The notes under the pieces were generated by a model. That model ran no database searches. It had not been told where the DNA came from and was given only the letters and a program-made list of their open reading frames with translations. A stretch of 64,000 bases of DNA from an uncultured Thermoplasmatales archaeon (GTDB lineage Archaea; Thermoplasmatota; E2; DHVEG-1): positions 6,656 to 70,655 of the forward strand of contig CAYPIF010000107.1 in assembly GCA_964410735.1 (NCBI GenBank). The letters run 5' to 3'. Made by a program: the position numbers and the translations under genes. Positions 30,032-60,280 of the stretch are shown in pieces (the stretch's first letter is position 1; the number at the start of each line of letters is the position of its first letter).

Positions 30032-30448
30032 TTACAAATCCGCTTTTATCGGGTTTGGCCCTAACTTTCTGATATCCTCTGTCATATCATTAATAAGGTC
30101 TGCATACTTTTTCCCCTCGGATGCTGAGACATATTCAAATCGTACCCGTTCAGGTTCCAATCCGAACTCGGCTAACATCTTCTTCAAGAGTTTCATCCGC
30201 CTATTTGCCTTATAATTTCCTGATTGATAATGACAATCACCTGGATGGCAACCAGCTACAAGCACACCATCAGCCCCTTTTTTCAAAGCCTCAAGAATGT
30301 AAACAGGGTCAACCCTCCCTGAACACATGACACGGATGGTCTTGATATTCGCAGGGTATTTCATCCTACTGGTACCGGCAAGGTCCGCTCCAGCATAGGA
30401 ACACCAGTTGCATAAAAACCCAATAATATTTGGTTCGAATTCACTCAT
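30032..30448 (-). CDS. mvhD: methyl-viologen-reducing hydrogenase delta subunit (MvhD)
   Basis: 138 aa. 'FLCNWCSYAGADLAG...CSGRVDP...AGCHPGDCHY' is the MvhD/FlpD fold. Confidence 0.85.
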   Translation of the reverse strand: MSEFEPNIIGFLCNWCSYAGADLAGTSRMKYPANIKTIRVMCSGRVDPVYILEALKKGADGVLVAGCHPGDCHYQSGNYKANRRMKLLKKMLAEFGLEPERVRFEYVSASEGKKYADLINDMTEDIRKLGPNPIKADL

Positions 30449-30969
30449 ATCTGTTTCACCTCATTTTTTATACGAAATTTTTCCATGGACACGTTTTCAA
30501 TCTTTTTATTTAAAGAGAGCTCAGAGAGGATCATCTGTACAGCTTTTGGAACTACCTTTTGAATCTCAGAACTTAGCGATTCATTGAACTCTGTTGGTAT
30601 CGTTTTAAGATTAACTCCAATGATGATGATGTTCTCCGGTATCTGATCATCACCGATCTTTTTTGAAAGATCAATTGCTTCCATAAGCGTAACATCATGA
30701 GGATTACATGAATGAACCGTTTCGATCTCTTTTATATTAAACCGTCTGATAGATCCCGGAGGTACCCCATTCATACAGACCGCATCGACTAGTATTGCAC
30801 GGTCATAACCTCGCATGAAATCTAAGAGATTCATCCCACCTGTTTGCGCTTCCTCAATGATTACGTTTGATGTTTCATTGACCCTTTGTTTGAGTTCCCT
30901 AACAATGTGGATACCTGCTCCATCATCACCAAGGATAGGATTTCCAATTCCAAGGATAATTGTTTTCAT
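30445..30969 (-). CDS. [NiFe]-hydrogenase maturation endopeptidase (HycI/HoxM family)
   Basis: 'ILGIGNPILGDDGAG' and 'DAV' motifs. The ORF track start (31113) lies inside mvhA, so 'MKTIILGIGN' at 30969 is preferred. Confidence 0.8.
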   Translation of the reverse strand: MKTIILGIGNPILGDDGAGIHIVRELKQRVNETSNVIIEEAQTGGMNLLDFMRGYDRAILVDAVCMNGVPPGSIRRFNIKEIETVHSCNPHDVTLMEAIDLSKKIGDDQIPENIIIIGVNLKTIPTEFNESLSSEIQKVVPKAVQMILSELSLNKKIENVSMEKFRIKNEVKQI

Positions 30970-30985
30970 GACTATAATATCACTC

Positions 30986-32440
30986 TTATTGTGTAAATGT
31001 CTTATACGGTTGTTTGTTGCTATTATAGATGTCAATTTGCATGGGCATCCCACCAGGTATCGAATGAGTCGCACACGCAAAACATGGATCATATGCACGG
31101 AACGCCATCTCAACCTTGTTCAGGATTCCATCATCGACCTTACCCTCTGAAATGATACCTTTTGCTGCATCTCGTACGCTCATTGTTATGGCACCAGCAT
31201 TGTTTGTTGTCGCAACGATAAGATTTGCTTTTTCAATGAGTCCTTTCTTATCAAGTTTATAATGATGTATCAAGGTTCCTCGTGCTGCCTCAGTGACCCC
31301 AAACCCTTCGCCTGGTTCTCCAACAGGATTTCTGATATCTTGAGAGGTTATTTCGGGATCTTTGATAAGTTCCATGCTCCGCTCAGTAGCATAAAGTAGT
31401 TCGATCAATCGTGCCCAATGATAAGCAAGGGTTGAGTTCACTGGTTTGCCACCAAGTGTCTTGAACATCGCCTTGTATTCTTTATCTGCTAAGGGGGTTG
31501 CCATGCCATCCGATGCGTTCAAACGGCCGAGTGGCCCAACCCGATAGATACCGCTTTTCTCACCATCGGTCAACCCATTCCAGCCGATATCCTTGAGATA
31601 AGGATATTTCATATAACTCCATTCCTCGACCCGTTCAGCAACAATTTTGTGATAATCCTGAACATCAAATTTCACATGCTCCTTACCTTTTTGATCGGTA
31701 ACACGTATCAGCCCATCATAGAAATTCACTTTATTGTTCCCATCAACCAGACCCATGTTGTACGTATTGAGTTGATACGGGTCACTTTTGATGAGGTCAA
31801 CATACTCATTATTTCCAAGGACAAGGTCATGGAAGAGTTTCAGAGAGAACTGCGCAAAACCAACACATGATTTTGCCATTTCCTCAATATTTATGACCTC
31901 TTCATCATTCAATCCTTTAGAAACACCCCCTGGAAGCCCACAGACTGGATGAGTTGCTTTGCCTCCAAGGATACCGGTGATCCGTTGGCCATATGCTCGA
32001 TGTTTAATGACCTCTTTTCCAATATCAACTCCTGCTTTCTCGATGACACCAAGAACATTTCGTTTTGCTGGTGGCGCATCAGGCCCTACAACAAAATCAG
32101 GACCTCCAAGATAGTAAAAATGAAGGATGTGATCATAGATGAAATATCCACAGTACATGAGTTCCCGTAGTTTCTTTGCCGCATTGGTCGGTTCGACATT
32201 GAATGCATCATCCAATGCTTTGGTACTGGCAAAATGATGAGCAACAGGACATACACCGCAGATACGACTGGTTATCTGAGGCATGTCCTCAGCTCTTCTT
32301 CCCTGCGCGAATCGTTCAAACCCTCGAAGTTCAGGGATCTGTAGATATGCATTCTCAACGTTTCCTGCATCATTTAAAAAAATATTGATCTTTCCATGAC
32401 CTTCAAGCCGGGTGATCGGATCTATTGTTATAGTCTTCAT
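30986..32440 (-). CDS. mvhA: [NiFe]-hydrogenase large subunit, F420-non-reducing (MvhA-type)
   Basis: 484 aa. N-terminal 'RLEGHG' and 'CGVCPVAHH'. C-terminal 'DPCFACATH' Ni-binding motifs, all Cys with no in-frame TGA. Confidence 0.9.
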   Translation of the reverse strand: MKTITIDPITRLEGHGKINIFLNDAGNVENAYLQIPELRGFERFAQGRRAEDMPQITSRICGVCPVAHHFASTKALDDAFNVEPTNAAKKLRELMYCGYFIYDHILHFYYLGGPDFVVGPDAPPAKRNVLGVIEKAGVDIGKEVIKHRAYGQRITGILGGKATHPVCGLPGGVSKGLNDEEVINIEEMAKSCVGFAQFSLKLFHDLVLGNNEYVDLIKSDPYQLNTYNMGLVDGNNKVNFYDGLIRVTDQKGKEHVKFDVQDYHKIVAERVEEWSYMKYPYLKDIGWNGLTDGEKSGIYRVGPLGRLNASDGMATPLADKEYKAMFKTLGGKPVNSTLAYHWARLIELLYATERSMELIKDPEITSQDIRNPVGEPGEGFGVTEAARGTLIHHYKLDKKGLIEKANLIVATTNNAGAITMSVRDAAKGIISEGKVDDGILNKVEMAFRAYDPCFACATHSIPGGMPMQIDIYNSNKQPYKTFTQ

Positions 32441-33438
32441 TCCCGTATCACCTTCCGGTTTATGATTGAGGTAGGTAACGTATATTTGTAAAATGTTCCA
32501 AGTGGGTCTACGATATCCTCAATGAGCTTATCAACATCCTCATCGCTCATCCCTTCCTCACCCTCAACACCAAGGATCGCTGCAAGACTTGATATCATCT
32601 TTCCGCCTTGCTCAAGACTATTTGGTGTGGGCCCACCACAACCGGTACAAGGCATATTCGCATCAAGACATCGTGCATCACAGCCCCCACGTGTTGCAGG
32701 TCCCATACAGATGATCCCTTGTTCCAGGAGACATTTTTCCTCGATATGATCAACCTCGTAAACACGTCGAATCTTGGTAATTTTCTTTTCAGTTTTTTCA
32801 AATCGACATTCATCACAGACAGATTTCAAGGGACCGATGACGGATCCTTTTGGTGGAAGTCTATTCTCAACGATTGCGTTGACCGCGGTCATGATCTGAT
32901 CGGGTGTCGGTGGACATCCATGAAGATAATAGTCGACCTCAACAGTTTGATCAAGACTTTTTACAGTATCAAAAAAATCCGGAAGGCTCAATTCTCCTTC
33001 TTTGACCTTACTTTTTGTCTTCGGTGTGACTTTCTCGGCATTCTCCGTCGATGGGTTATCAAGATATGCCACATCGAATATCTCTTTTTTATTGGCAATA
33101 TTCGCAAGGCCAGGGATGCCACCATGTACTGCACATGCACCGAATGCGACAAGGATCTTTGATTTTTTCCGTAAGAGGAATGCCATGTTTTCCTGTTCCT
33201 CTGTTCGGATAGCCCCATTGAAAAAACAGACATCGATATGATGATCATCCATTTCTTCAACATCTTTGTACTTTGTATCAAGTGCCACTGGCCAGAAAAG
33301 GATTTCCGCTATCGCTGCAACATCAAGGATTTTTTCGTCGATATCGAGTACGGCAATCTCGCAACCACCGCAACTAGCTGCCCAATAAAAAGCAATATTC
33401 ATTTTTTTATTCTGAGAAGACAGGTTTTTTTTAACCAT
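32437..33438 (-). CDS. mvhG: [NiFe]-hydrogenase small subunit (MvhG-type)
   Basis: 333 aa. Proximal-cluster 'SCGGCE' with further Cys clusters. Overlaps the mvhA start. Confidence 0.8.
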   Translation of the reverse strand: MVKKNLSSQNKKMNIAFYWAASCGGCEIAVLDIDEKILDVAAIAEILFWPVALDTKYKDVEEMDDHHIDVCFFNGAIRTEEQENMAFLLRKKSKILVAFGACAVHGGIPGLANIANKKEIFDVAYLDNPSTENAEKVTPKTKSKVKEGELSLPDFFDTVKSLDQTVEVDYYLHGCPPTPDQIMTAVNAIVENRLPPKGSVIGPLKSVCDECRFEKTEKKITKIRRVYEVDHIEEKCLLEQGIICMGPATRGGCDARCLDANMPCTGCGGPTPNSLEQGGKMISSLAAILGVEGEEGMSDEDVDKLIEDIVDPLGTFYKYTLPTSIINRKVIRE

Positions 33439-33612: not shown

Positions 33613-34404
33613 TTGATATATATGAACTATGAGACAGTTACAACGGAAACAAAGGATCATTGCATGTACATTACCCTCTGCAGACCAGAGAGGTTAAATG
33701 CTTTTGACATTAAACTAGGGATGGAACTTGGTGAGGTTCTTGAACATGCTTCAAAGGATCAAACGGTAAAAGCCGTTGTAATGAAGGGAACAGGAAAAGG
33801 GTTCTGCGGTGGTGGAGATGTCAAAGAGATGCATACTGCAAAGGATAAACCAGCATTCCTTCGAGAATTAACCAAAGTCATCCATCGATGCGTCATTGCT
33901 ATGAGAACAATGGAAAAACCGGTCATCGCAGCGGTCAATGGAGCCTCATTTGGAGCTGGATTTTCGCTTGCATTAGCCGCTGATATCATCATTGCCTCGG
34001 AAAATGCTACGTTTGGAACAGCATTCATAGGAATCGGTCTTGCCCCTGGTTGCGGTACGCAATTGTTCACACAGCTTGTCGGGTATCAAAAAGCATGCGA
34101 ATACATCTTAACCTCAAAATCATTCTCTGCAAAAGAAGCAGAAAAATTAGGAGTCATAAACAAGATCGTTGAAGAGGCAGAGTTAGATTCAACTGTCGAA
34201 TCATTTGTAGATATCTTTCGAAGATCACCCACCATTGCAGTAGGCAAGGCAAAAGTTCTGATCAATAAAAGCCTTGACAATAATTTTATCAATCATTTGG
34301 AACTTGAAAGTATCACCGCAGCATATACCGCTGGAACAAATGATTTCTCAGAAGGCGTGCAAGCATTTACTGAAAAACGTAAACCAACCTTTTCAGGAAC
34401 CTAA
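33613..34404 (+). CDS. enoyl-CoA hydratase/isomerase (crotonase)
   Basis: 263 aa. 'LNAFD', 'GGGDV', 'GASFGAGFSLALAADI'. Confidence 0.85.
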   Translation: MIYMNYETVTTETKDHCMYITLCRPERLNAFDIKLGMELGEVLEHASKDQTVKAVVMKGTGKGFCGGGDVKEMHTAKDKPAFLRELTKVIHRCVIAMRTMEKPVIAAVNGASFGAGFSLALAADIIIASENATFGTAFIGIGLAPGCGTQLFTQLVGYQKACEYILTSKSFSAKEAEKLGVINKIVEEAELDSTVESFVDIFRRSPTIAVGKAKVLINKSLDNNFINHLELESITAAYTAGTNDFSEGVQAFTEKRKPTFSGT

Positions 34405-34514
34405 TTTTTATCGGCAATTCATGTAAATTTTTTGAGAAAACTTTATGTATTTTACCTAATATGGAAGGGCAACTACGAAAGAAAAGATGGACAAATACAC
34501 CCTGGTGAATAGAT

Positions 34515-35300
34515 ATGGACTACACAACAATTCAAATCGAAAAGGATCAGGATGTTGCAACAATCTATCTCAATAGACCTGATGTACATAACGCGATGGA
34601 TGAAACGTTAATGAGAGAGCTTACCGATTGTTTTACAAAATTGGATAACGATATTGATATCAGGATAATTATTTTAACAGGGAACGGGAAATCATTCTGC
34701 GCTGGTGCAGATCTTAAATGGATGAAAAGCATGGTACACTATTCAAAGGAAGAAAACATCAGAGACAGTCGGTTGCTCCTAGACCTTTATGAGTCGATTT
34801 ACCATTGTGATAAACCAACGATTGCACGAGTAAATGGACATGCATTCGGAGGAGGAATTGGGTTATTTGCCGCATGCGATATTGTTGTTGCTGTTCCTGA
34901 ATGTAAATTTGCATTCAGCGAGGCAAAACTTGGTATCATCCCTTCCGTTATATCTACCTATATCCTTCGTAGAGCCCATTCGTTATCACAGGTCAGACGC
35001 CTGTTCATAACTGGTGAGCGGTTTTCCTCAGAATATGGTGAAAAAATAGGTTTGATTGATTATGTTGTTAACTTTGAGGAGATCGATACCTTTATTCAAA
35101 AATACATTACAATCATTCAATCATCAGGACCAAAGGCGATAACTGAAGTGAAAGGATTATTATATGCGTATGAGACCCATCCAAAAGAGAAATATAAAGA
35201 ATATACTGTTAACAAGATATCTGAATTACGAGTATCAGAGGAAGGGCAAGAAGGAATCAACGCATTTTTGGAAAAACGAAAAGCAAGGTGGTGTGAATAA
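34515..35300 (+). CDS. enoyl-CoA hydratase (crotonase; methylglutaconyl-CoA-hydratase-like)
   Basis: 261 aa. 'FCAGADLKWM', 'GHAFGGGIGLFAACDI'. Confidence 0.85.
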   Translation: MDYTTIQIEKDQDVATIYLNRPDVHNAMDETLMRELTDCFTKLDNDIDIRIIILTGNGKSFCAGADLKWMKSMVHYSKEENIRDSRLLLDLYESIYHCDKPTIARVNGHAFGGGIGLFAACDIVVAVPECKFAFSEAKLGIIPSVISTYILRRAHSLSQVRRLFITGERFSSEYGEKIGLIDYVVNFEEIDTFIQKYITIIQSSGPKAITEVKGLLYAYETHPKEKYKEYTVNKISELRVSEEGQEGINAFLEKRKARWCE

Positions 35301-35303
35301 ACG

Positions 35304-36806
35304 ATGTTTCAGAAAATATTGATCGCAAATCGTGGTGAGATCGCCGTTAGGATCATCAAAGCCTGCCAGGAACTTGGCATAAAAACCGTTACCATCTATT
35401 CAGACGTTGACATGAAATCTCCTCATGTCCTTCTTGCTGATGAGGCAGTGAACCTCGGAGACCCAACACCAGTGGAAAGCTATCTAAATATACCAAAGAT
35501 CATCAAGGTGGCCCAGGCAAAAAAATGTGAAGCTATCCATCCTGGATATGGTTTCCTTGCTGAAAACCCGGATTTTGCTGAAACCTGTAACAAAGCAGGA
35601 ATAAAATTTATTGGACCCTCCCCCAAGGTCATCGGTCTTATGGGGGATAAGATCGCTGCGAAGATAACAATGGAAAAGGCTGGTGTCCCAGTCATTCCAG
35701 GATATCATGGCCCCAGTCAAGATAATGACACATTAGTGAAAGAAGGAAAGAAGATTGGTTTTCCCCTTCTTGTCAAAGCTGCAGCTGGTGGCGGCGGAAA
35801 GGGCATGCGGATTGTTAAATCCGAAAATACACTCCTTGAATCAATTGAAAGTGCAAAACGTGAATCAAAATCCTCTTTTGGAAATGACACCGTTTTTCTT
35901 GAACGATATCTTGAAAAACCTCGTCATATCGAATTTCAGATCCTTGGTGATGAACATGGGAACATTATCCATCTTTTTGAAAGGGAATGTTCCATTCAAC
36001 GCAGACATCAGAAGATCATTGAAGAATCACCTTCGCCAGTAATGACTCCTGAACTCAGAGAGAAAATGGGTAAAGCCGCAGTTACTGCAGCAAAAGCCGT
36101 CGGGTATACGAATGCGGGAACAGTAGAGTTCATGGTCGATGGTTCTCTAAATTATTATTTCATGGAGATGAATACTCGATTACAAGTTGAACATCCTATA
36201 ACAGAGTTAACAACGGGTATCGACCTTGCAAAATGGCAACTTCGTATCGCAAGCGGGGAAAAACTCACCCTAAAACAAAAGGATGTGTTTCAACGGGGTC
36301 ATGCTATTGAATGCCGTATCTATGCAGAGGATCCAAAGAATGGTTTCCTCCCCAGTGTTGGCACCTTATTAAAACTTGAGGAACCGACTGGTCCAAACAT
36401 CAGGGTTGACTCAGGCATCCTCGCAAACAATCAGATCTCACCCTATTATGATCCCATGTTATCAAAATTGATCACCTATGCGGAGAACAGGGAGGATTGC
36501 ATACATAAGATGACCTGGGCATTATCACATTATGTGGTCCTCGGGGTCACATCTAATATCTCATTTTCAAATGAGGTCCTTAAACATAAAGAATTCCAAA
36601 AAGGGAATACCACAACACATTTCATTGATAATTATTTCAAAGAATGGACTGTTTCAAAGAAAACATTGCCAGTTGATGCACTGATAGCTCTAGCAGTGTA
36701 TGATTCAATGCATTCGAAAAAAGAGGAAATCGTTAGATACAAAGAAGCTGACCCACATTCCCCTTGGAAACATGTGGGAAGATGGCGTGTGAGCGGAGGT
36801 GAATGA
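35304..36806 (+). CDS. biotin carboxylase subunit of an acyl-CoA carboxylase
   Basis: 500 aa. ATP-grasp 'GGGGKGMRIV', 'EMNTRLQVEHPITE'. No BCCP domain. Confidence 0.9.
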   Translation: MFQKILIANRGEIAVRIIKACQELGIKTVTIYSDVDMKSPHVLLADEAVNLGDPTPVESYLNIPKIIKVAQAKKCEAIHPGYGFLAENPDFAETCNKAGIKFIGPSPKVIGLMGDKIAAKITMEKAGVPVIPGYHGPSQDNDTLVKEGKKIGFPLLVKAAAGGGGKGMRIVKSENTLLESIESAKRESKSSFGNDTVFLERYLEKPRHIEFQILGDEHGNIIHLFERECSIQRRHQKIIEESPSPVMTPELREKMGKAAVTAAKAVGYTNAGTVEFMVDGSLNYYFMEMNTRLQVEHPITELTTGIDLAKWQLRIASGEKLTLKQKDVFQRGHAIECRIYAEDPKNGFLPSVGTLLKLEEPTGPNIRVDSGILANNQISPYYDPMLSKLITYAENREDCIHKMTWALSHYVVLGVTSNISFSNEVLKHKEFQKGNTTTHFIDNYFKEWTVSKKTLPVDALIALAVYDSMHSKKEEIVRYKEADPHSPWKHVGRWRVSGGE

Positions 36807-36810
36807 TCCT

Positions 36811-37305
36811 ATGTTTATTAATTATGAGCACGAAAATCATGTCTATAAAGTGACCATTGAGCGAAGAAATGACAATTTTTTTGTCACCTATGATAACACA
36901 GAGTACAAGGTTACCGCTGAGGAAATCGAACAGGGACATTTGAAGATAAAGGTTGGAGACCGGGTCATTAAATCTGTTGTCACCGAAGGGGAAAAGGAGA
37001 AATTCGTTTTCATTGACGGCAGTGTGTTTAAGGTCAAACCTGTGGAGCTCACCGGTCGAACGAAAAAAAGGAAGAAAGAGGCTGGAGAGAGCGACCTTGA
37101 CTCACCAATCTCAGGTAAAATCGTTCAGGTCAAAGTAAAGAAAGGTGATACCGTAAAGAAAGGCGATGTCCTCATCGTCATCGAAGCTATGAAGATGGAA
37201 TATCTGATACGTTCACCATTCAATGGTAATGTAGCAAAAATTCATTTCAAAGAAAATGATCAGATAGAAATCGGTCAAAAAACCGTGGATATCACAAAAA
37301 AATAA
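36811..37305 (+). CDS. biotin carboxyl carrier protein (biotinyl domain)
   Basis: Biotinylation motif 'IEAMKMEY'. GGAGG at 36795-36799 favours ATG 36811 over the track's GTG at 36799. Confidence 0.8.
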   Translation: MFINYEHENHVYKVTIERRNDNFFVTYDNTEYKVTAEEIEQGHLKIKVGDRVIKSVVTEGEKEKFVFIDGSVFKVKPVELTGRTKKRKKEAGESDLDSPISGKIVQVKVKKGDTVKKGDVLIVIEAMKMEYLIRSPFNGNVAKIHFKENDQIEIGQKTVDITKK

Positions 37306-37317
37306 GGAGATGGAATC

Positions 37318-38925
37318 ATGGATGTTATTGAAAGTTCAATAGATACATCAAGTAAGGAATTCAAGGAGAACTTTGTTCATTATCAGAAATTGGTCAAACA
37401 TCTAAAAGATGATATAACTAAAGCTCAACAAGGTGGAGGAGAAGAAAAGATAAAACTTCATAAGAGCAGAAACAAGATGCTCGCCCGCGAAAGAATCGAT
37501 GCTCTCATCGATCCTGACACCCCATTCATGGAATTCAATCCTCTTGCTGCATACGGTATGTATGATGATAAGGCACCTAGCGCTGGTATCGTTACAGGCA
37601 TTGGCATTGTGCACGGTCGAGAGGTTGTTATCGTCGCTAATGATGCAACGGTCACAGGTGGAACATATTATCCAATGACTGTGAAGAAGCATCTAAGGGC
37701 TCAAGAGATAGCACTTGAGAATAACATACCATGTATCTATCTTGTTGATTCTGGTGGAGCATTCCTCCCTATGCAGGATGAAGTGTTTCCAGATCGGGAG
37801 CATTTTGGAAGGATATTTTATAACCAAGCGGTCATGTCCTCAAAGAACATCCCTCAGATCTCATCTGTGATGGGTTCTTGTACAGCTGGTGGTGCATATG
37901 TTCCTGCTATGAGCGATGAGACCATTATTGTTAAAGGAACTGGGACTATTTTTTTAGGAGGACCACCTCTTGTAAAAGCTGCAACCGGTGAGGAGGTTTC
38001 TGCTGAAGATCTTGGTGGTGCTGATGTTCATTGTAAGGAAAGTGGCGTCTCAGATCATTATGCTCATGATGATCCTGAAGCTATTTCCATGGTTCGTAAC
38101 ATTGTTGAGAACCTGAACAGGCCAACGAAGACATATCTTGATGTTCAAAAACCTGAGGAACCCGCCTATGATGTTAAAGAGATCTATGGTATCATTTCCA
38201 AGGATGCTCGGAAGCCATTTGAGGTACGGGAGATCATTGCCCGCATCGTTGATGGGTCTAAATTCCATGAGTTCAAGGCATTGTATGGGACAACAATCGT
38301 GTGTGGATTTGGCCGTATCATGGGTTACCCAGTTGGGATTCTTGCTAATAATGGTGTGCTTTTCTCAGAGTCCGCATTGAAAGGTACTCATTTCATTGAG
38401 ATGTGTTGCCAACGAAAGATACCACTTGTATTCCTTCAGAACATCACTGGTTTCATGGTTGGAAGGAAATATGAGGCAGGTGGTATCGCAAAGGATGGAG
38501 CAAAGATGGTGAGTGCTGTTGCAACAGCAAATGTTCCAAAGTTCACGGTCATCATCGGTGGTTCCTTTGGCGCAGGAAATTACGGTATGTGCGGTCGAGC
38601 GTATCAACCAAGGCAACTATGGATGTGGCCAAATTCAAGGATATCAGTGATGGGTGGTGAACAGGCAGCGAATGTACTTTTGACCGTGAAACGTGACCAA
38701 CTTTGGAGAAAAGGTATTGAATTGACAAAGGAAGAAGAAAAGAAGATCACCGACCCTATCTATAAGAAATATGAACTTGAAGGTAACCCGTATTACAGTA
38801 CTGCTCGTATCTGGGATGATGGTATTATCGATCCGGCTGATACAAGGCTTGTTTTAGGCCTGAGCATCTCAGCTGCGTTAAATGCACCAATTCCAGATTG
38901 GAGACCGGGTGTGTTCAGAATGTAG
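37318..38925 (+). CDS. acyl-CoA carboxylase carboxyltransferase subunit (MccB/PccB-like)
   Basis: 535 aa. '[11 protein letters not shown]...FMEF' and two crotonase-like CT domains, most like methylcrotonyl-CoA carboxylase beta. Confidence 0.85.
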
Positions 38926-43959: not shown

Positions 43960-43961
43960 AT

Positions 43962-52762: not shown

Positions 52763-52782
52763 AAAGATGATTACTCATCTTT
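52763..52782. terminator. stem-loop AAAGATGA-TTAC-TCATCTTT between convergent meaB and a crotonase gene
   Basis: 8-bp perfect inverted repeat. The loop contains the crotonase stop codon. An A-rich run lies on the meaB side. Confidence 0.3.
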
Positions 52783-53550
52783 GAAGTTTGGTTTACGTTT
52801 CTCAAGGAATGCACCCATTCCTTCTTTTTGATCATGGGTGGAGAAACTTGTCGAGAAGTATAATATTTCTAGACTACAGGCACTGGTAAGATCAACATGT
52901 GATCCTTTATTGACCAATGCTTTGATAAACGATATCTGCACCGCGGATTTACTTGCGATGTTCTTTGCAAGTGTCTCTACTTCATCCATAAGTGATCCAT
53001 CATCGACGATCTTATTGACAAGACCAATGTCCAATGCTTCTTGCGCATCGATGTTTCGCCCAGTGAGGAGAAGTTCTTTTGCTTTCATCAGACCGACGAT
53101 ACGGGGCAGACGTTGTGTTCCACCAAACCCTGGGTTGATACCAAGGTTGATCTCTGGTTGGCCGATCTTTGCGTTTGTTGATGCGATACAGATATCACAG
53201 GACATCATCACCTCACAGCCACCACCAAGAGCATACCCATTGACCGCTGCGATGAAGGGAAGGCGTGACTCCTCGATCTTCACCGGCAGACTATGACCAA
53301 GTTCAGCAAATTCCTTTGCTTCTAGCGGCGTCATATCCTTCATCTGTTTGATATCCGCTCCTGCGATGAACGCTTTACCTTCACCAGTGAGTATCGCTGC
53401 TTTGATCTTTTTATCATCCTCAAGTTCAGAGACCGCGTTGAGAAGTTCACGTATTGTCTCTTTATTCAAAGCGTTAAGGACATTTGGCCGGTTGATTTTG
53501 ATGATACCAACAGTATCTTTTTTTTCAACGATGATGTTCTTGTATGTCAT
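52771..53550 (-). CDS. enoyl-CoA hydratase (crotonase; 3-hydroxybutyryl-CoA dehydratase-like)
   Basis: 259 aa. 'FIAGADIKQM', 'GYALGGGCEVMMSCDI'. Confidence 0.85.
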   Translation of the reverse strand: MTYKNIIVEKKDTVGIIKINRPNVLNALNKETIRELLNAVSELEDDKKIKAAILTGEGKAFIAGADIKQMKDMTPLEAKEFAELGHSLPVKIEESRLPFIAAVNGYALGGGCEVMMSCDICIASTNAKIGQPEINLGINPGFGGTQRLPRIVGLMKAKELLLTGRNIDAQEALDIGLVNKIVDDGSLMDEVETLAKNIASKSAVQISFIKALVNKGSHVDLTSACSLEILYFSTSFSTHDQKEGMGAFLEKRKPNFKDE

Positions 53551-53561: not shown

Positions 53562-54425
53562 CTATTTAGAATAATCATAGAATCCTTTTCCTGTTTTCCT
53601 ACCGAGGTAGCCTGCTTGTACCATTTTTTTCAGCAGCGGATTAGGACGGTATTTCGAATCATTGAATCCTTCATAGAGAACGGTCATAATGTTCAACACG
53701 ACATCAAGTCCAATAAGATCAGCAAGGGCAAGGGGGCCCATAGGATGGTTCATCCCTAGTTTCATGACCTGATCAATGTTCTCCGCAGCCCCAATTCCTT
53801 CATTGAGACAGGTGATGGCTTCATTGATCATTGGCATGAGCAGTCGGTTGCTAACAAAACCGGGTCCATCATTGACCTCAACAGGTATCTTTCCCATGTT
53901 CTCTGAGAGCTCATGGATGAGTTTGGCGGTCTTATCATCTGTCCGTAGTCCACGGATGACCTCTACTAGTTTCATCAAAGGTACCGGGTTCATGAAATGC
54001 ATACCGATGAATTGCTCAGGCCGTTGTGTAACTGAAGCTAGATCGGTTATTGGTATCGTGCTTGTGTTGCTAGCAAGGATGCAGTCTTTTTTACAGATAC
54101 CATCGAGCTCTTTGAACAGATCCTTTTTTACTTGAACGTTTTCAAAGATGGCTTCGATGATAAGGTCCACATCTTTCATATCTGACAACTTGGTCGTTGT
54201 TTTGATATGACCTAGTATCTTTGTTTTTTCATCCACGCTCATTTTTCCTTTTTCAATGCTTTTATCAAGGAATTTTTCGATCTTTGAAAGGCCTTTTTTC
54301 ACGTATTCCTCTTTTATATCACGTAGGATGACATCAAATCCTGCTTGTGCAGAGACAAGAGCGATACCATGGCCCATTTGTCCTGCACCAATTACTCCAA
54401 TTTTTTTAACAGCCATTTTTTCCAC
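53562..54425 (-). CDS. 3-hydroxyacyl-CoA (3-hydroxybutyryl-CoA) dehydrogenase
   Basis: 287 aa. Rossmann '[14 protein letters not shown]', C-terminal dimerisation domain. Confidence 0.9.
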
Positions 54426-55604
54426 CTACCGTTCAACGACCATGGATACAGCGTTTCCGCCTCCAAGGCATATTGTTGCGAGTCCCCGTTTCTTATTCAT
54501 TCTGTTCATAGCATGCATAAGGGTCACAAGGATCCTTGATCCACTGCAACCAATAGGATGACCAAGAGCAACTGCGCCACCATGGACATTGAATTTTTCT
54601 TTTGGTATCTTGAAATACTTCATCACCGCAAGTGATGCACTGGAAAACGCTTCGTTATGTTCAACAAGATCAATATCTTTGATCGTAAGTTTCATCTTTT
54701 TCAGAAGAGCATCCACACCAGGTAAGGGTGCTTCCATCACTAGCTCCGGTTTAACCCCTGAGGTGTTGTAGCCTTTGATGGTCACCATTGGCTTGATCCC
54801 CATCTCTTTAGCTTTTTCTTTGCTCATGAGAATTGTTGCACTGGCACCATCTGTTATCTGTGATGCATTCCCCGCAGTGACCACGCCATCCTTTTTGAAG
54901 AATGGTTTGAGTTTTGCTAGACTTTCAGCGGTTGTACCATAGCGGATACCTTCATCCTTATCAAAGAGTATCGGGTCCTTTTTCTTCTGTGGTATCTCAA
55001 CCGGAAGAATCTCATCTTTAAACCATCCGTTCTCTGTTGCCTTCTCTGCCTTCTGATGACTTGACGCTGCGAACTCATCACAATCCTGTCGAGTGATATC
55101 GTTTCGCTCAGCAACGATCTCCCCCGTGTTGCCCATATGGAAATCATTGTAGATGTCCCATAATCCATCATTGACCATAAGATCTACTATCTTAGCATCA
55201 AACATCCTTGCCCCATACCGTGCCTTTGGAATGCTATACGGTACATTGCTCATGCTTTCCATACCACCAGCTACAACGATATCTGCATCATCACATTTGA
55301 TAGCCTGTGCAGCAAGCACCACGGCCTTTAATGAGGATCCACAGACCTTATCCACATGCAAGGCTCCTGCCTCATAGGGTATTCCCGCTCCGATCGCTGC
55401 TTGCCGGGCAACATTTTGACCGAGGCCCGCGGGGACAACACAGCCCATGATGACCTCATCAACATCTTTTGCTGTTATCCCTGCTTTCTCAACGGCTCCT
55501 TTGATAGCTATGCTTCCCAGCTGTGGCGCAGAAAAATCCTTTAATGCTCCTGAAAATTTCCCTTGTGCTATTCTCACACCGGATACTATTACGACATCTT
55601 TCAT
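54426..55604 (-). CDS. acetyl-CoA C-acetyltransferase (thiolase II)
   Basis: 392 aa. Active-site Cys in 'KVCGSSLKA'. C-terminal 'GHPIGCSG', 'CLGGGNAV'. Confidence 0.9.
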
Positions 55605-55725: not shown

Positions 55726-57369
55726 TCAGCTCTTACGGAGTTCTCTACGGAGTATCTTTCCCGAGATTGTTTTTGGAAGTTCATCAGCGTATTCAATGAT
55801 ACGAGGATATTTGTAAGGTGCAGTGGTTGTTTTTACATGTTCCTGCAGTTCCTTTGTAAGTGCATCTGATGGTTTGTATCCTTTTGCAAGGACGACAAAT
55901 GCTTTTACGACGATTCCCCGAACACCCTTAGGATCTGTTGCACCGACCACGGCGCATTCTGCCACCGCATCATGCTCGATGAGAGCGGATTCTACTTCAA
56001 ATGGTCCAATACGATATCCAGATGATTTGATGACATCATCATCACGACCCACGAACCAGAAATATCCATCTTGATCCTTGTAACCCCTGTCACCGGTATA
56101 GTAATACTCTCCACGGAACGCTCGTTTCATGATATCCTCATCTTTCCAGTATTCCTTGAAAAGCCCTGGAGGTCGTGTCTTCCCGATATATAAGGCGATG
56201 TTACCTTCTTCCTCAGGTGAAAGTTCTTTACCATCATCATCAACGATACGGACATCATGACCCGGTGTTGGTTTACCAACAGATCCATATTTAATCTTCA
56301 TGAAAGGATAGTTAGAGAGGACACAAACGGTCTCCGTTTGACCATAGAAATCATATATCTCAAGTCCAAACGCCTTTTTCCATACACGGATGACCTCAGG
56401 GTTCAATGGTTCACCTGCACTCATAGAATGTCGGAGTTTCAGATCATATTTTGAAAGATCCATCTGTATCAATAATCGATACACGGTTGGTGGTGCACAG
56501 AAGGAGGTGACACCATATCTTTCCATTGCTCGCAGTAATCCATCAGGGTCAAATCGTCCAGGGGTCTCCCATTGGATGACTGCTGCACCAGCGATCATTT
56601 GACCAAAAAGTTTGCCCCATGCAGCTTTTGCCCAGCCGGTCTCTGACACAGTCCAATGAAGATCTTTATCACTGAGTGCTTGTGCAAATCGTGCAGTGAC
56701 CTCATGTCCAAGTGGATAGCTATGGGTATGAAGAACCATTTTTGGATGACCTGTTGTTCCCGATGTGAAATAGATAAGCATGGGATCTGATGATTTGGTC
56801 TTCTCAATTTTATCTTTATCTAATGAAGATGTTACCTCGACCATCTCTTCATCGTAATTATACCATCCTGATCGTTTTCCATCCACAAGCATCAGGTGTT
56901 TAAGTGTTGGACACTTGGCTTTTACCGAGTCAACACTATCCGCATGGTCCATATCAGTTAGTATCATCGTTGCCTCAGCACGATTTATTCGAAACTCGAT
57001 ATCTTTACCTGTGAGAAGCACGGTCCCTGGCATTGGTATGACACCTAATTTGAACATACCAATAAGAGCGATATACCATTCAGGGATGCTCTGAAGGATA
57101 ACAAGTACTCGATCTCCTTTTTTGAGACCTATTTTCTGAAGCATTGCCGCAAAACGATCTGATGACCGGCTGAGATCATAAAAGGTATGATATCGATCAT
57201 GCTTACCCGTTCGATCTATTGATATAAGGGCTAGCTTTGTTCGATCCTCTGCCCATTTATCAACGACATCGAACCCAAAATTGTAGTATTTTGGGACTTC
57301 CCATTTGAAGTTCTTGTAAAGTTCATCGTAATTCTTTATCTGTTCTATTGTTTTGGCTTTCTCAGTCAT
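55726..57369 (-). CDS. AMP-forming acyl-CoA synthetase (paralog of 46270-47913)
   Basis: 547 aa. 'FTSGTTGHPKM', 'GYRIGPFEVES', 'PKTISGKILRR'. Confidence 0.85.
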   Translation of the reverse strand: MTEKAKTIEQIKNYDELYKNFKWEVPKYYNFGFDVVDKWAEDRTKLALISIDRTGKHDRYHTFYDLSRSSDRFAAMLQKIGLKKGDRVLVILQSIPEWYIALIGMFKLGVIPMPGTVLLTGKDIEFRINRAEATMILTDMDHADSVDSVKAKCPTLKHLMLVDGKRSGWYNYDEEMVEVTSSLDKDKIEKTKSSDPMLIYFTSGTTGHPKMVLHTHSYPLGHEVTARFAQALSDKDLHWTVSETGWAKAAWGKLFGQMIAGAAVIQWETPGRFDPDGLLRAMERYGVTSFCAPPTVYRLLIQMDLSKYDLKLRHSMSAGEPLNPEVIRVWKKAFGLEIYDFYGQTETVCVLSNYPFMKIKYGSVGKPTPGHDVRIVDDDGKELSPEEEGNIALYIGKTRPPGLFKEYWKDEDIMKRAFRGEYYYTGDRGYKDQDGYFWFVGRDDDVIKSSGYRIGPFEVESALIEHDAVAECAVVGATDPKGVRGIVVKAFVVLAKGYKPSDALTKELQEHVKTTTAPYKYPRIIEYADELPKTISGKILRRELRKS

Positions 57370-57393: not shown

Positions 57394-58554
57394 TTATAAA
57401 CCTAATTGACGAGCGATGACCATCTTTTGTACTTCAGATGTTCCCTCGCCTATCTGACATAATTTAACATCACGGTAAAATCGTTCCAAGGGGTATTCAC
57501 GCATGTACCCATTGCCCCCAAAGATCTGCATCGCTTTGACTGTTGCATTCATTGCTATCTCTGATGCATAGTATTTTGCCATCGCTGCTTCTTTTGTGAA
57601 GCGGATGTTTTGATCCTCCATGTGCGCCGCTCTATGGACAAGGAGCCGAGCTGCATCGATCTGTGTGGCCATGTCAGCGATCATCCATTGGATAGCTTGG
57701 TTCTTCCCGATAGGTTTTCCAAACTGTTGACGTTGTTTTGCATATTCCAAACTTTCTTCCAAAGCACCACGAGCGATACCTACGCTCATCGCACCGATAG
57801 CGGTTCGCCCTCGATCCAGGATATTCATCGCACCAATGAAACCGTTTCCCACTGTATCAAGAAGATTTTCTTTAGGTATCCGACAATCCTCTAAAATGAT
57901 CTCAGCGGTATGACTCCCTCGAAGACCAAGTTTATCTTCTAATTGCCCTACATTGTATCCAGGTGTTCCTTGTTCCACGATAAATGCACTGATCCCTTTT
58001 GCACCCTGTGTCTTATCTGTTTTTGCCATGACCGTTGTGACCAATGCGATATCCCCACTTGTAATGAATTGTTTTGTTCCATTGAGCACCCATTCATCCC
58101 CATCAAGAACCGCTGTTGTCTGTAATGATGCTGCATCTGACCCTGCATTTGGTTCGCTTAATGCCCAGGCAGCTATCCCATCACCATTGAGCAGTTTGGG
58201 AAGATATTTCTTTCGTTGTTCTTCGGTTCCTTTCTCATAGATGTGTCCTACGCCAAGGCTGTTATGCGCTTCGAGCGTTAATCCGGTTGATCCGCAATAT
58301 CGGGATATCTCCTCTAGGGCTATCATGTAACTGATCCTATCAATACCGGAACCACCATATGCTTGTGGCACGGTCATTCCCATAAGTCCCATGGCACCCA
58401 TTTTCTTGTAGAGTTTTTTTGGGAAATACTCTTCTTTATCGATCTTTGATGCTAATGGTTTGAGTTCTTTCTCACAAAATTCATGTACCGTTTTTTGGAA
58501 CAATTTTTGTTCGGAGGTAAGGTTAAAATCCACTGAAATCACCATCCCCGTCAT
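57394..58554 (-). CDS. acyl-CoA dehydrogenase (paralog of 47945-49111)
   Basis: 386 aa. 'GSDAASLQTTA', 'IGEGTSEVQKMVIA'. Confidence 0.9.
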   Translation of the reverse strand: MTGMVISVDFNLTSEQKLFQKTVHEFCEKELKPLASKIDKEEYFPKKLYKKMGAMGLMGMTVPQAYGGSGIDRISYMIALEEISRYCGSTGLTLEAHNSLGVGHIYEKGTEEQRKKYLPKLLNGDGIAAWALSEPNAGSDAASLQTTAVLDGDEWVLNGTKQFITSGDIALVTTVMAKTDKTQGAKGISAFIVEQGTPGYNVGQLEDKLGLRGSHTAEIILEDCRIPKENLLDTVGNGFIGAMNILDRGRTAIGAMSVGIARGALEESLEYAKQRQQFGKPIGKNQAIQWMIADMATQIDAARLLVHRAAHMEDQNIRFTKEAAMAKYYASEIAMNATVKAMQIFGGNGYMREYPLERFYRDVKLCQIGEGTSEVQKMVIARQLGL

Positions 58555-58654
58555 ATTGTAATCCTAAAAAAAGCTTTAGGTAAACGTATACGGCAGAAGC
58601 CGATAAGATATAGTTGCAACAGATATCATACGGTACATTTATTGAATGCAAGGA

Positions 58655-60280
58655 TTATAGTTTAAGTCGATCTTTTGCGATTCCCCTAAGATCTATCTTT
58701 CGTATTTTGCCACTTGCGGTCATCGGAAAATCATCGGTGAACAGGATATATTTTGGTATCTTGAAACGAGAGATACCCTCTTTACAATACTTCTTGACAT
58801 CCTCCTCAGTCACATTCATACCTTCACGGACCTTTATAAAAGCACAGACCTCCTCACCATATTTTTTATTAGGCACACCTACAACAGCAACATCCTGGAT
58901 CTTATCATAGGTATAAAGGAACTCTTCTATCTCACGGGGATATACATTCTCTCCACCGCGTATGATCATATCATCGATACGGCCGTGGATGCTAAAGTAT
59001 CCATCTTCATCCTTCACCGCAAGATCCTTTGTATGCAACCAACCATCTCTAATGACCTCTTGTGTCTTTTCAGGCATTTTATAATAACCTTTCATAACAC
59101 CAAATCCTCTTGCAACCAGTTCACCTGATTTACCCGGGAGTAATTCCTTACCGGTATCAGGATCAATGATCTTTACTTCCACATTTGGTATCGGTTTACC
59201 AACGGTCTCCACACGTTTTTGTACTGGGTCATCACGTCGGGTCTGAGTGAGAACAGGTGACGTCTCTGTAAGCCCATAAGCAATGGTTATCTCTTGAAGG
59301 TTCATCTTGCTCATCGCATCGACCATTACCTCTATTGGGCAGGACGCACCAGCCATGATACCAGTTCGAAGGGAGGACATATCATAGTTAGTGAAATTCG
59401 GATGGTATAGCTCTGCAGTGAACATCGTGGGAACTCCTTGGAGCGCAGTACATTTCTCAGCTTCAACAGCCTGTAAAACCTCCTCAGCATCGAATATCTC
59501 TATAGGAACCATTGCTGATCCATGTATGACACAGTTAAGGGTTGACATGACACAGCCAAAACAATGGAAGAATGGCACGGGTATGCACAGACGATCATAT
59601 TCGGTCATGCCCATGATCTCTCCAACATAGTATGCATTATTAACAATATTATTATGGGTTAACTCGACTCCTTTTGGAAACCCTGTGGTACCTGATGTAT
59701 ATTGCATATTGATAGTATCATGGATATCGCAGGTTTCCTGACGAGCGAGAAGCTCTTCATCAGATATCTTTTTGTGAAGTTTCAGGAGATCTTCGAAGAG
59801 AAGCATGCCCTTTTGTTTTGTATCACCAATGAAAACAATGTTTTCCAAAAAAGGGAGTTTCTCAAGGTTAAGTTTACCTGGTTCGGTCGTTTTAATCTCA
59901 GGAGCGACCTTGTAGACCACATCGATATAGTTTACATCCTTGAATTCTTCAACAAGGAACAATGTCGTGGTATCAGATTGCTTAAGTAGATATTCTAATT
60001 CTTTTGCTTTGTAATACGTGTTGACCGTGACAAGGACCGCACCTATTTTAGCTGATGCGAATTGAAGGAGCACCCATTCTGGTACATTGTATGCCCATAT
60101 AGCAATATGATCTCCTTTCTTGATGCCTAGAGCCATCAGCGATTTTGCAAGTTTGTCCACTTCTTCTTTGAATTCCTTATACGTTAATCGTATTCCCCGT
60201 TTTATATAGACCATGGCATCATGGTCTGGATATTTCTTCGCTGTTTCATCAACAATTTCACCGATGGTCTTTGATAGCAT
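58655..60280 (-). CDS. AMP-dependent fatty-acid--CoA ligase
   Basis: 541 aa. 'YTSGTTGFPKG', 'GYGLTETS', 'PMTASGKIRK'. Confidence 0.85.
   Translation of the reverse strand: MLSKTIGEIVDETAKKYPDHDAMVYIKRGIRLTYKEFKEEVDKLAKSLMALGIKKGDHIAIWAYNVPEWVLLQFASAKIGAVLVTVNTYYKAKELEYLLKQSDTTTLFLVEEFKDVNYIDVVYKVAPEIKTTEPGKLNLEKLPFLENIVFIGDTKQKGMLLFEDLLKLHKKISDEELLARQETCDIHDTINMQYTSGTTGFPKGVELTHNNIVNNAYYVGEIMGMTEYDRLCIPVPFFHCFGCVMSTLNCVIHGSAMVPIEIFDAEEVLQAVEAEKCTALQGVPTMFTAELYHPNFTNYDMSSLRTGIMAGASCPIEVMVDAMSKMNLQEITIAYGLTETSPVLTQTRRDDPVQKRVETVGKPIPNVEVKIIDPDTGKELLPGKSGELVARGFGVMKGYYKMPEKTQEVIRDGWLHTKDLAVKDEDGYFSIHGRIDDMIIRGGENVYPREIEEFLYTYDKIQDVAVVGVPNKKYGEEVCAFIKVREGMNVTEEDVKKYCKEGISRFKIPKYILFTDDFPMTASGKIRKIDLRGIAKDRLKL

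Follow-up and report, generated by a model that had tools for sequence, protein, structure and literature searches.

We analyzed a 64-kb window of DNA, that is, the whole stretch taken from contig CAYPIF010000107.1 of an uncultured Thermoplasmatales archaeon, and in particular the locus at positions 30032-60280, which carries the genes of a hydrogenase (MvhADG), a heterodisulfide reductase (HdrABC) and an electron transfer flavoprotein (EtfAB) among genes of acyl-CoA metabolism. The identities of the genes in the window were assigned from Pfam, NCBIfam and PDB searches together with the list of open reading frames (ORFs), and the neighbor loci of relatives are labeled L001-L088. All 28 gene calls that an earlier sequence-only reading had made for this locus agree with our searches in position and family. 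Its description of the layout also holds: the gene order is mvhG-mvhA-hycI-mvhD with an embedded protease gene, hdrCBA (in the order C-B-A) begins 5.6 kb from the start of mvhG, a carboxylase/crotonase operon (33613-38925) is bracketed by the mvh and hdr operons, between mvhG and hdrC, and the window has neither an mvhB polyferredoxin gene nor a match to any methanogenesis gene family. Scans for tRNA genes and Rfam families gave zero matches in the 64 kb.

The hydrogenase genes are located on the minus strand. The small subunit gene mvhG (32437-33438; Pfam Oxidored_q6; best NCBIfam match VhuG, 198 bits) is followed by mvhA (30986-32440; best NCBIfam match VhuA), which encodes the large subunit, by the gene for a HycI-type hydrogenase maturation endopeptidase (30445-30969; Pfam HycI, 77 bits), whose true start is the ATG at 30969, and by mvhD (30032-30448; Pfam FlpD, 198 bits; best NCBIfam match VhuD, 159 bits), for the [2Fe-2S] subunit of the MvhD/FlpD type, through which electrons pass between the hydrogenase and HdrA. 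ATGA overlaps of stop and start codons occur at mvhG/mvhA and hycI/mvhD. The translation of mvhA contains an L1 motif, RICGVCPVAHH, and an L2 motif, AYDPCFACATH, with a C-terminal extension of 25 residues beyond the L2 histidine. The maturation of [NiFe] large subunits involves a protease that cleaves off such a C-terminal extension, and the HycI-type protease would be expected to do so here. Both motifs agree with the definition of group 3c [NiFe] hydrogenases, ICGxCxxxH for L1 and AYDPCxxCATH for L2 (PMC6085437), and the protein scores 378 bits against MvhA of the methanogen complex (5ODC_F).

On the plus strand, hdrC (39069-39596; Pfam Fer4_8/9/17), hdrB (39593-40483; two Pfam CCG domains, for non-cubane [4Fe-4S] clusters) and hdrA (40485-42452) encode the heterodisulfide reductase. 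The start of HdrA, the FAD-containing bifurcating subunit, is the ATG at 40485 and not the TTG at 40455. The protein aligns end to end with 5ODC_A (755 bits, residues 4-652 against 5-647), is 55.8% identical to the crystallized bifurcating HdrA of M. thermolithotrophicus and shares 27 of 37 cysteine columns with it. The four domains, namely the N-terminal cluster domain, the thioredoxin-reductase-like FAD domain, the inserted ferredoxin and the C-terminal ferredoxin, are all present. The bifurcation architecture of HdrA, which the sequence-only reading had named as a point to check, was therefore found in full, and judged by its sequence HdrA is a complete subunit of the methanogen bifurcating type. 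At residues 293-311 (41361-41417), the second motif of the inserted ferredoxin domain is enlarged to C-x7-C-x5-C-x3-C, where methanogen HdrA has CxxCxxCxxxC; the enlarged form is shared with L041. We also considered a 160-residue HdrA insertion, suggested by matches of about 2450 nt at some loci, and ruled it out because translation meets a stop after about 655 aa; the long matches arise from tblastn merging HdrA with a downstream HdrA-like gene.

HdrB keeps both CCG motifs and matches methanogen HdrB (8RVU_b) over its full length with 189 bits, while HdrC belongs to the Fer4 dicluster families and has two [4Fe-4S] motifs. Both proteins align along their whole length with the soluble methanogen subunits, and no membrane-like segment was found in HdrB, HdrC or the other subunits with a 19-residue window and a Kyte-Doolittle threshold of >1.6. 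Against the NCBIfam equivalogs for CoB-CoM reduction, HdrB (222 bits, cutoff 345) and HdrC (81 bits to CoB_CoM_SS_C, cutoff 160) both fall below the cutoffs, whereas the NCBIfam score of HdrA is very high, a difference that fits an altered partner on the HdrBC side.

Convergent with hdrA lies a minus-strand operon that runs from 49111 down to 42499. It begins with ACAD1, a Bcd-like acyl-CoA dehydrogenase (ACAD; 47945-49111; 478 bits to 5OL2_C; NCBIfam AcrC, 527 bits), and continues with ACS1, an AMP-forming acyl-CoA synthetase (ACS; 46270-47913; Pfam AMP-binding; best NCBIfam match MbcS, 557 bits), etfB for the small Etf subunit (45512-46273; Pfam ETF), etfA for the large one, which is without a ferredoxin domain (44551-45507; Pfam ETF and ETF_alpha, and PDB matches), a DUF6125 gene (43962-44492) and an abfD-like gene (42499-43989). 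The dehydrogenase is thus encoded in the same operon as etfBA, and etfB is translationally coupled to ACS1 through an ATGA overlap. The same gene order and gene calls recur on an independent JGI metagenome contig of 72.9 kb, one protein of which is 100% identical to the EtfB of the window, and L001, L003 and L006 also have the gene order of the window; the arrangement is therefore not an accident of assembly.

The best matches of ACAD1, EtfA and EtfB among solved structures are the bifurcating Bcd-EtfAB and CarCDE complexes (5OL2, 6FAH), and the sequence motifs of Etf differ from those of this type. EtfB has GEASIDMFSGQVGP and DYAMLT where the bifurcating type has GRQAIDGDTAQVGP and DTWATS, and its zipper reads D-M-F-S-G-Q, which is neither D-G-D-T-A-Q (group 2) nor D-D-D-x-N-Q (group 1). 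All 21 of the 21 Hdr-linked EtfBs have D-x-F-S-G-Q in place of D-G-D-T-A-Q and have lost Thr94 and Thr97, with DT94WAT97S changed to a DY type; EtfA has xYSGN in place of the PAFGGN of bifurcating Etf. The zipper is nearly invariant in group 2 and reads D-D-D-x-N-Q in group 1, and a T94,97A variant converts bifurcating Etf into a one-FAD, AMP-binding protein (PMC8958531). This Etf is therefore unlikely to bifurcate by itself and, because it lacks the residues of the bifurcating FAD, HdrA would be the sole candidate site of bifurcation.

The wider family of this Etf was surveyed with a HMMER scan of 1.8 billion cluster representatives, from which we took the 150 nearest clusters at 50% identity. 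Among the 141 full-length EtfB representatives (200-320 aa), 114 have a motif like GE[AG]SxDx[YF]SxQ, 23 are bifurcating-like and 0 are canonical, which places EtfB in what appears to be a large Etf family without a solved structure. The assignment of our Etf to the bifurcating type, suggested by its best PDB matches, was ruled out by the motifs and by this survey. Distant Etfs of the same family, from Thermoplasmata and Syntrophomonadaceae (L086, L087, L088), adjoin ACADs and FixC/FixX-like ETF oxidoreductases rather than Hdr. In syntrophic bacteria the partner of Etf is a DUF224 oxidoreductase, and the CCG domain, by which HdrB is defined, was formerly called DUF224. Hdr therefore occupies the "Etf oxidoreductase slot" in our clusters; neither FixCX nor a DUF224 membrane protein as Etf acceptor was found in any Etf-Hdr cluster examined.

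To describe the conservation of the locus, 30 window proteins were compared by tblastn with 80 related loci, which are the best 80 of the 444 relatives obtained from an HdrA scan of one genome per species. In L027, L031, L033, L036, L046, L048, L064 and L068, the genes form a single string on one strand, ACAD-(ACS)-EtfB-EtfA-(DUF6125)-(AbfD-like)-HdrC-HdrB-HdrA-MvhD-MvhG-MvhA-HycI, with gaps of 5-60 nt or overlapping stop and start codons. The string of L064 reads EtfA-46 nt-HdrC-10-HdrB-26-HdrA-47-MvhD-11-MvhG-(-1)-MvhA-6-HycI. Between etfA and hdrC there are 46-53 nt in L064, L050 and L067, and DUF6125 sits between these two genes in L027, L031, L036 and L082-L084; in the window, etfA and hdrC are 2 kb apart and convergent. 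The carboxylase operon is convergent at the end of the string of the relatives and a cobA-mutase operon is divergent at its start. The ACAD2 paralogue, and not ACAD1, stands at the head of the string in L036 and L083. Starting from EtfB instead, 3 of 3 sampled homologues, from independent NCBI/ENA assemblies, lie in the same 12-gene string, and the stop and start codons of the hdrA-mvhD-mvhG-mvhA-hycI stretch overlap in all three, a translational coupling that would fit a hexameric Hdr-Mvh complex.

The frequency of this linkage was also determined. The etfA gene is co-directional and directly upstream of hdrC in 15 of the 59 loci with at least 2.6 kb of upstream sequence. For the 50 loci with both flanks, Etf and orthologous Mvh are both present in 8, only Etf in 9, only Mvh in 1 and neither in 32 (Fisher p = 3e-4), so that Mvh occurs almost only where Etf is present. 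On the HdrA tree, the Etf-linked loci are spread over no fewer than four separate clades, so that the linkage of Etf and Hdr is old and was lost or scrambled repeatedly. The sequence-only reading had asked whether the synteny is conserved in the lineage and had held that linkage is rarely as complete as in this locus. The synteny is conserved, on both the HdrA and the EtfB side, in the form of tighter co-directional strings, and the claim of completeness was understated, as the window is a rearranged, scrambled copy of the tighter ancestral operon seen in relatives. One string, that of L083, contains a gene (7338-7550) for a 70-residue 2x[4Fe-4S] ferredoxin within ACS-ACAD-EtfBA-Hdr-Mvh, which is a candidate for the ferredoxin partner of the string.

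A second type of arrangement keeps the same core and exchanges the hydrogenase. In L050, L067, L069-L073 and L080, ACAD-EtfB-EtfA-HdrC-HdrB-HdrA is followed on the same strand by genes other than mvhAG (L067 11954-20205); in loci of the L067/L080 type, these encode a NuoE-like [2Fe-2S] protein, a NuoF-like FMN/NADH subunit, a 1088-residue Fer2_4/HdrA-like fusion, MvhD and FeS proteins. Since an NADH module here replaces the hydrogenase, ACAD/Etf is what stays constant beside this Hdr, in those loci where its substrate side has such a neighbor at all, and the mid-potential module, for H2 or NADH, is what varies. In a third type (L044 11838-21790, with L038, L041, L045 and L052-L062 alike), hdrCBA is followed, without Etf, by genes for a 1558-aa GltD-like/HdrA-like fusion, MvhD and an FrhB-like protein, and a 1016-aa HdrA-like protein is also encoded. 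Several loci of this type have, upstream, a divergent and distant [NiFe] hydrogenase (28-31% identity).

The 80 best HdrA relatives are all from metagenome-assembled genomes of Thermoplasmatota, including SM1-50 and M11B2D (MBG-D, Thermoprofundales). We assign the host to the Thermoprofundales type of the Thermoplasmatota, non-methanogenic archaea formerly known as MBG-D, which published genomics describes as peptide degraders without methanogenesis.

The remaining genes of the locus indicate which substrates could feed this system. The carboxylase operon has five genes on the plus strand, is divergent from mvhG and ends 143 nt before hdrC. It encodes two crotonases, ECH1 (33613-34404; Pfam ECH_1, 201 bits), an enoyl-CoA hydratase/isomerase with zero specific NCBIfam equivalogs, and ECH2 (34515-35300), similar to methylglutaconyl- and carboxygeranoyl-CoA hydratases, whose matches to PRK07468 (255 bits) and to the gamma-carboxygeranoyl-CoA hydratase model (205 bits) are below the model cutoffs; a biotin carboxylase (35304-36806; Pfam CPSase_L_D2, Biotin_carb_N and Biotin_carb_C; NCBIfam accC, 640 bits); a biotin carboxyl carrier protein (BCCP; 36799-37305; Pfam Biotin_lipoyl); and a carboxyltransferase (37318-38925). 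The latter scores 798 bits against the beta subunit of human 3-methylcrotonyl-CoA carboxylase (MCC; MCCB, 8J4Z) and 779 bits against MCC of P. aeruginosa (3U9R), compared with about 250 bits against propionyl-CoA carboxylase beta and 249 bits against archaeal acetyl-CoA carboxylase (7W5U); its top match, 9TPS (806 bits), is deposited under the name of a propionyl-CoA carboxylase beta subunit. Since the carboxyltransferase is of the MCC-beta type and ECH2 is nearest to methylglutaconyl-type models, the operon looks like the MCC module of leucine catabolism. The Pfam scans of the window found no HMG-CoA lyase.

Upstream of ACAD1, a divergent plus-strand operon encodes CobA, an ATP:corrinoid adenosyltransferase (49191-49709; Pfam CobA_CobO_BtuR, 215 bits), the catalytic subunit of methylmalonyl-CoA mutase (49727-51403; Pfam MM_CoA_mutase, 748 bits), the B12-binding subunit of the mutase (51416-51814; Pfam B12-binding) and its G-protein chaperone MeaB (51811-52752; Pfam MeaB, 288 bits). 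Genes of beta-oxidation follow on the minus strand: ECH3, a short-chain enoyl-CoA hydratase or crotonase (52771-53550; Pfam ECH_1, 247 bits; PRK05809, 339 bits), 3-hydroxybutyryl-CoA dehydrogenase (53562-54425; PRK05808, 451 bits, above the cutoff of 408), acetyl-CoA C-acetyltransferase or thiolase (54426-55604; Pfam Thiolase_N and Thiolase_C; TIGR01930, 463 bits), the AMP-forming synthetase ACS2 (55726-57369; Pfam AMP-binding; MbcS-like, 502 bits), ACAD2, a second Bcd-like dehydrogenase (57394-58554; Pfam; AcrC, 489 bits), and ACS3, an AMP-forming fatty-acid CoA ligase (58655-60280; PRK12583, 789 bits). Both dehydrogenases are nearest to clostridial Bcd and AcrC, in PDB and NCBIfam respectively, and both ACS1 and ACS2 are nearest to MbcS, a branched short-chain acyl-CoA synthetase.

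The protein encoded next to DUF6125 belongs to the family of AbfD, the 4-hydroxybutyryl-CoA dehydratase, with 345 bits to 6VJR, 339 bits to 1U8V and 116 bits to HpaB. It has the motif APYRAAIGGCVAG in place of CYHRRSY-VCKTG, and this change is kept in five relatives (L003, L006, L023, L033, L046). The [4Fe-4S] ligands of AbfD, in the numbering of C. aminobutyricum, are presumably Cys99, Cys103, His292 and Cys299. Three cysteines are present in our protein, the first pair as CxxxxC, the histidine ligand is replaced (APYRAAIGGC versus CYHRRSY-VC), and the adjacent tyrosine and lysine are also missing. It represents a distinct subfamily of divergent AbfD paralogues, for which the name 4-hydroxybutyryl-CoA dehydratase in the strict sense is not warranted. 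The sequence-only reading had seen in the locus a full 4-hydroxybutyrate gene set; this description is overstated, in view of the altered AbfD-like active site and of the carboxylase, which is of the MCC type and not an acetyl- or propionyl-CoA carboxylase.

Taken together, the arrangement suggests that acyl-CoA oxidation, and not a methanogenic disulfide, is the redox partner of Hdr-Mvh. Our best reading, to which we would give an even chance of being right, is that of a catabolic island with its own soluble electron disposal through Etf, Hdr and Mvh, in which the enoyl-CoA/acyl-CoA couple would replace CoM-S-S-CoB. The island would cover beta-oxidation, leucine catabolism through MCC and the conversion of propionyl-CoA through methylmalonyl-CoA mutase in peptide-degrading Thermoprofundales. 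The Bcd-like ACADs would oxidize acyl-CoA and reduce a one-FAD, non-bifurcating Etf, which would exchange electrons with the iron-sulfur module of HdrC and HdrB, as Etf does with the CCG "DUF224" oxidoreductase in syntrophic bacteria. At the HdrA flavin, these high-potential electrons would be joined with electrons from reduced ferredoxin, supplied for example by 2-oxoacid:ferredoxin oxidoreductases, and both would be passed on by MvhD to MvhAG, the group 3c [NiFe] hydrogenase, which would form H2. At higher H2, the system would run in reverse, as an H2-driven enoyl-CoA reductase that makes reduced ferredoxin. The gene identities, the motifs, the conserved operon structure and the exchange of modules are established by the present analysis; the electron transfer between Etf and Hdr, its stoichiometry and its direction are inferred.

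A more specific proposal is that ACAD, EtfAB, HdrABC and MvhADG form an unrecognized supercomplex of flavin-based electron bifurcation (FBEB) or confurcation, in which the one-FAD Etf would dock on HdrBC and H2 would be evolved by a soluble, quinone-independent route, with an NADH-linked sister form, and in which the "unknown substrate" long sought for Hdr in non-methanogens would be identified for one lineage; we put this forward tentatively, with a likelihood somewhat short of even. The coupling of ACAD/Etf with HdrABC-MvhADG to H2, as proposed in the sequence-only reading, has become considerably more plausible through the strings of the relatives, the NADH variant, the architecture of HdrA and the loss of the Etf motifs.

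Several observations, on both the partner of Hdr and the direction of the reaction, weigh against our reading. Synteny is evidence of functional association and not of direct electron transfer. The positions of Thr94 and Thr97, which follow R. palustris numbering, come from the 5OL2_B alignment and from a DTWATS motif that we take to be the corresponding one. In 32 of the 50 loci with both flanks, hdrCBA stands isolated among unrelated genes, without Etf or Mvh nearby (with HdrA up to 77% identical), and Hdr is therefore not dependent on an adjacent Etf or Mvh and could act on a different substrate. The etf, hdr and mvh sets of the window are three separate transcription units, divergent or convergent, and HdrB keeps the full motifs of the disulfide-reducing clusters, including the two CCG motifs with which methanogens reduce disulfides, so that a thiol/disulfide substrate is conceivable. 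These last three observations would fit the conventional explanation, published for the non-methanogenic Thermoplasmata (bioRxiv 10.1101/2020.03.09.984617, citing Lazar 2017), in which H2 oxidation reduces ferredoxin and an "unknown heterodisulfide or other sulfur compound"; ACAD and Etf would then work separately and would be neighbors through shared regulation or a common ferredoxin pool. This leaves unexplained why, in several clades, 46-53 nt separate etfA from hdrC within a single co-directional string, and why ACAD-Etf-Hdr is kept when the hydrogenase is swapped for an NADH module. Moreover, the Etf is without the bifurcating-FAD residues, and these clusters have neither a FixCX or DUF224 acceptor for it nor a conserved gene for a thiol carrier. 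On balance, we regard the conventional explanation as rather unlikely.

The direction of the proposed coupling has its own difficulties. The relevant potentials are -10 mV for crotonyl-CoA, -140 mV for CoM-S-S-CoB, -414 mV for H2 and -420 mV for ferredoxin (PMC5861303). We computed -77 kJ/mol for the H2-consuming reaction, or -61 kJ/mol with ferredoxin at -500 mV. Because this direction is strongly exergonic, the evolution of H2 requires very low H2, and it is feasible only below about 0.4-13 Pa (ferredoxin at -500 mV; the value varies with the acyl-CoA/enoyl-CoA ratio). Such H2 pressures are typical of sediments with hydrogenotrophic partners. The same coupling could thus operate reductively, as an enoyl-CoA reductase driven by H2 or, in the variant, by NADH, with reduced ferredoxin as a product that the membrane-bound hydrogenase Mbh would reoxidize to build an ion gradient, in a kind of "enoyl-CoA respiration" or butyrate-type fermentation. 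Buckel and Thauer consider the analogous Bcd-Etf reaction essentially irreversible in vivo (PMC5861303), thiolase, 3-hydroxybutyryl-CoA dehydrogenase, crotonase, Bcd and EtfBA are the clostridial set for butyrate synthesis, the grouping of a synthetase with ACAD and EtfBA resembles carA, carC, carD and carE of caffeate respiration (6FAH being among the best matches), and Mbh is encoded by 71% of Thermoprofundales genomes (PMC9585477). However, the conserved, ATP-dependent MCC-type carboxylase and the methylglutaconyl-CoA hydratase need 3-methylcrotonyl-CoA, which comes from oxidation by an ACAD, and the window has neither a CoA-transferase nor a phosphotransacylase with a kinase to release a reduced product; Thermoprofundales are, in addition, documented peptide degraders at low H2. 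We consider the reductive mode unlikely. As the MCC operon lies beside the string and its substrate derives from ACAD oxidation, the balance tilts to the oxidative, H2-evolving direction, and for low-H2 sediment we lean, by a slight degree, toward H2 evolution. An H2-driven, anaerobic fixation of CO2 related to the hydroxypropionate/4-hydroxybutyrate or dicarboxylate/4-hydroxybutyrate cycles, with the carboxylase, the mutase, 4-hydroxybutyryl-CoA dehydratase, crotonase, 3-hydroxybutyryl-CoA dehydrogenase and thiolase as components and ACAD/Etf as acryloyl-CoA reductase, was also weighed: superficially, the locus has every enzyme class that the second half of such a cycle requires, and AcrC, an acryloyl-CoA reductase, is the best NCBIfam match of both ACADs. 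We rejected the hydroxypropionate/4-hydroxybutyrate set on the MCC-type carboxyltransferase (about 800 bits, versus 249 bits to 7W5U) and on the AbfD-like enzyme, which lacks the histidine ligand and nearby active-site residues; malonyl-CoA, succinyl-CoA and succinic-semialdehyde reductases are also absent from the window, and this explanation is extremely improbable.

A catabolic island with electron disposal through Etf, Hdr and Mvh can be compared with several known systems. Like the methanogen MvhADG-HdrABC complex (5ODC), it has all six subunit types and the group 3c motifs, and the hdrA-mvhD-mvhG-mvhA order of the relatives corresponds to the methanogen D-G-A order. It differs in that the 64 kb hold no mcr or other methanogenesis genes, in that a hycI gene takes the place of the MvhB polyferredoxin gene, in that the operon of the relatives is joined to ACAD-EtfBA (the mvh order in the window being G-A-hycI-D), and in HdrB and HdrC lying under the CoB-CoM equivalog cutoffs. 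With the Bcd-EtfAB and CarCDE complexes (5OL2, 6FAH) it shares the closest structural matches of ACAD1, EtfA and EtfB and an enoyl-CoA/acyl-CoA couple tied to ferredoxin. Here, in contrast, EtfB is without the group 2 zipper and both threonines, EtfA has xYSGN rather than PAFGGN, the mid-potential partner would be H2 through Hdr and Mvh instead of NADH at Etf, and the bifurcating flavin would be located in HdrA.

The EtfAB genes of S. wolfei and Smithella adjoin that of a DUF224 FeS oxidoreductase, which takes the electrons of butyryl-CoA dehydrogenase (PMC5606693). The EtfAB:DUF224 systems of Syntrophomonas, Syntrophus and Smithella resemble ours in that etf adjoins a module of a 4Fe-4S dicluster and CCG, the same Pfam domain as in HdrB. 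In the bacteria, this oxidoreductase is bound to the membrane and draws on the proton-motive force to reduce menaquinone, whereas HdrB and HdrC are soluble, without a hydrophobic segment, and HdrBC sits on a bifurcating HdrA with no evident quinone link. The FlxABCD-HdrABC and BamB-I class II benzoyl-CoA reductase modules combine HdrABC and MvhD with an NADH-reactive NuoEF-like part, as in the relatives of the L067/L080 type; unlike these, the window has a [NiFe] hydrogenase and not an NADH module, and the high-potential acceptor proposed for the Flx systems is DsrC or an "unknown disulfide", not Etf. For Prometheoarchaeum syntrophicum MK-D1, MvhADG-HdrABC was proposed to confurcate electrons of reduced ferredoxin to H2, and ACADs tied to EtfAB were noted, in the passages of PMC7015854 concerned. 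It is likewise a non-methanogenic, amino-acid-degrading, syntrophic archaeon with a proposed Mvh-Hdr evolution of H2; those passages name no high-potential donor and no etf-hdr-mvh operon, whereas here the gene order nominates ACAD/Etf.

Term searches of the two principal genome papers on Thermoprofundales found no mention of Mvh or Etf, and full-text searches of the open-access literature gave no earlier account of an Etf-Hdr operon. Hdr-Mvh homologues are widespread in non-methanogenic archaea and in bacteria, and their high-potential substrate is routinely written as an "unknown disulfide". The disposal of the high-potential electrons of ACADs is a classic thermodynamic problem of anaerobes, which syntrophic bacteria handle with a membrane-bound reverse electron transport driven by the proton-motive force (PMC5861303). 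If our reading is true, it would give a concrete answer to both questions for Thermoprofundales, which are among the most abundant groups of sediment archaea: a soluble, ferredoxin-assisted route from the oxidation of fatty acids and branched-chain amino acids to H2. The locus and its relatives also illustrate a modular evolution of Hdr, with the same ACAD-Etf-Hdr core connected to a hydrogenase or to an NADH module. The cluster is small (10-12 genes) and should lend itself to heterologous expression.

The gene of the DUF6125 protein, which is small and similar to V4R/Bet3 ligand-binding proteins, keeps its position in relatives, either between etfA and hdrC or ahead of the AbfD-like gene. In Foldseek, the AF2 model of the protein (pLDDT 86) matches the sensor domains of MopR/DmpR as well as TRAPP Bet3, and the sequence has the invariant residues C153-x2-C156-x4-H161-x5-C167, whose Cys3His set is a probable zinc site. 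A role as Fe-S adaptor between Etf and Hdr was ruled out by the V4R/Bet3/MopR-like fold, which is one of ligand binding and not of electron transfer, and by the absence of the protein from the strings of L064, L050 and L067; it may be an accessory that binds a small molecule or an acyl group.

The remainder of the window includes a thermosome gene, which identifies the host as an archaeon, and other groups of genes. A gene for a C25 (gingipain-like) peptidase of 723 aa (8672-10843, minus strand) adjoins those of a CARDB-like protein and a MacB/FtsX-type ABC transporter (5142-8255, plus strand), a neighborhood that fits the extracellular protein degradation reported for MBG-D. A dense oxidative-stress island is located at 15796-24762 on the minus strand, with genes for a ferredoxin:thioredoxin-reductase-like catalytic subunit fused to rubredoxin, a nitroreductase, SufBD/SufC-like proteins, two rubrerythrins, a PAS protein, ferritin, a 1-Cys peroxiredoxin, a flavodiiron protein, a flavin reductase and Fur. 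An ORF of 688 aa (837-2903, minus strand) with zero Pfam matches lies downstream of a CHASE4/HAMP histidine kinase gene (2950-4878). At 25843-29315, on the plus strand, an alanine-racemase-N-domain protein, an M20 peptidase and a full alanine racemase are encoded with GNAT acetyltransferases on the flanks, and this trio may serve the salvage of D-amino acids or of peptidoglycan peptides.

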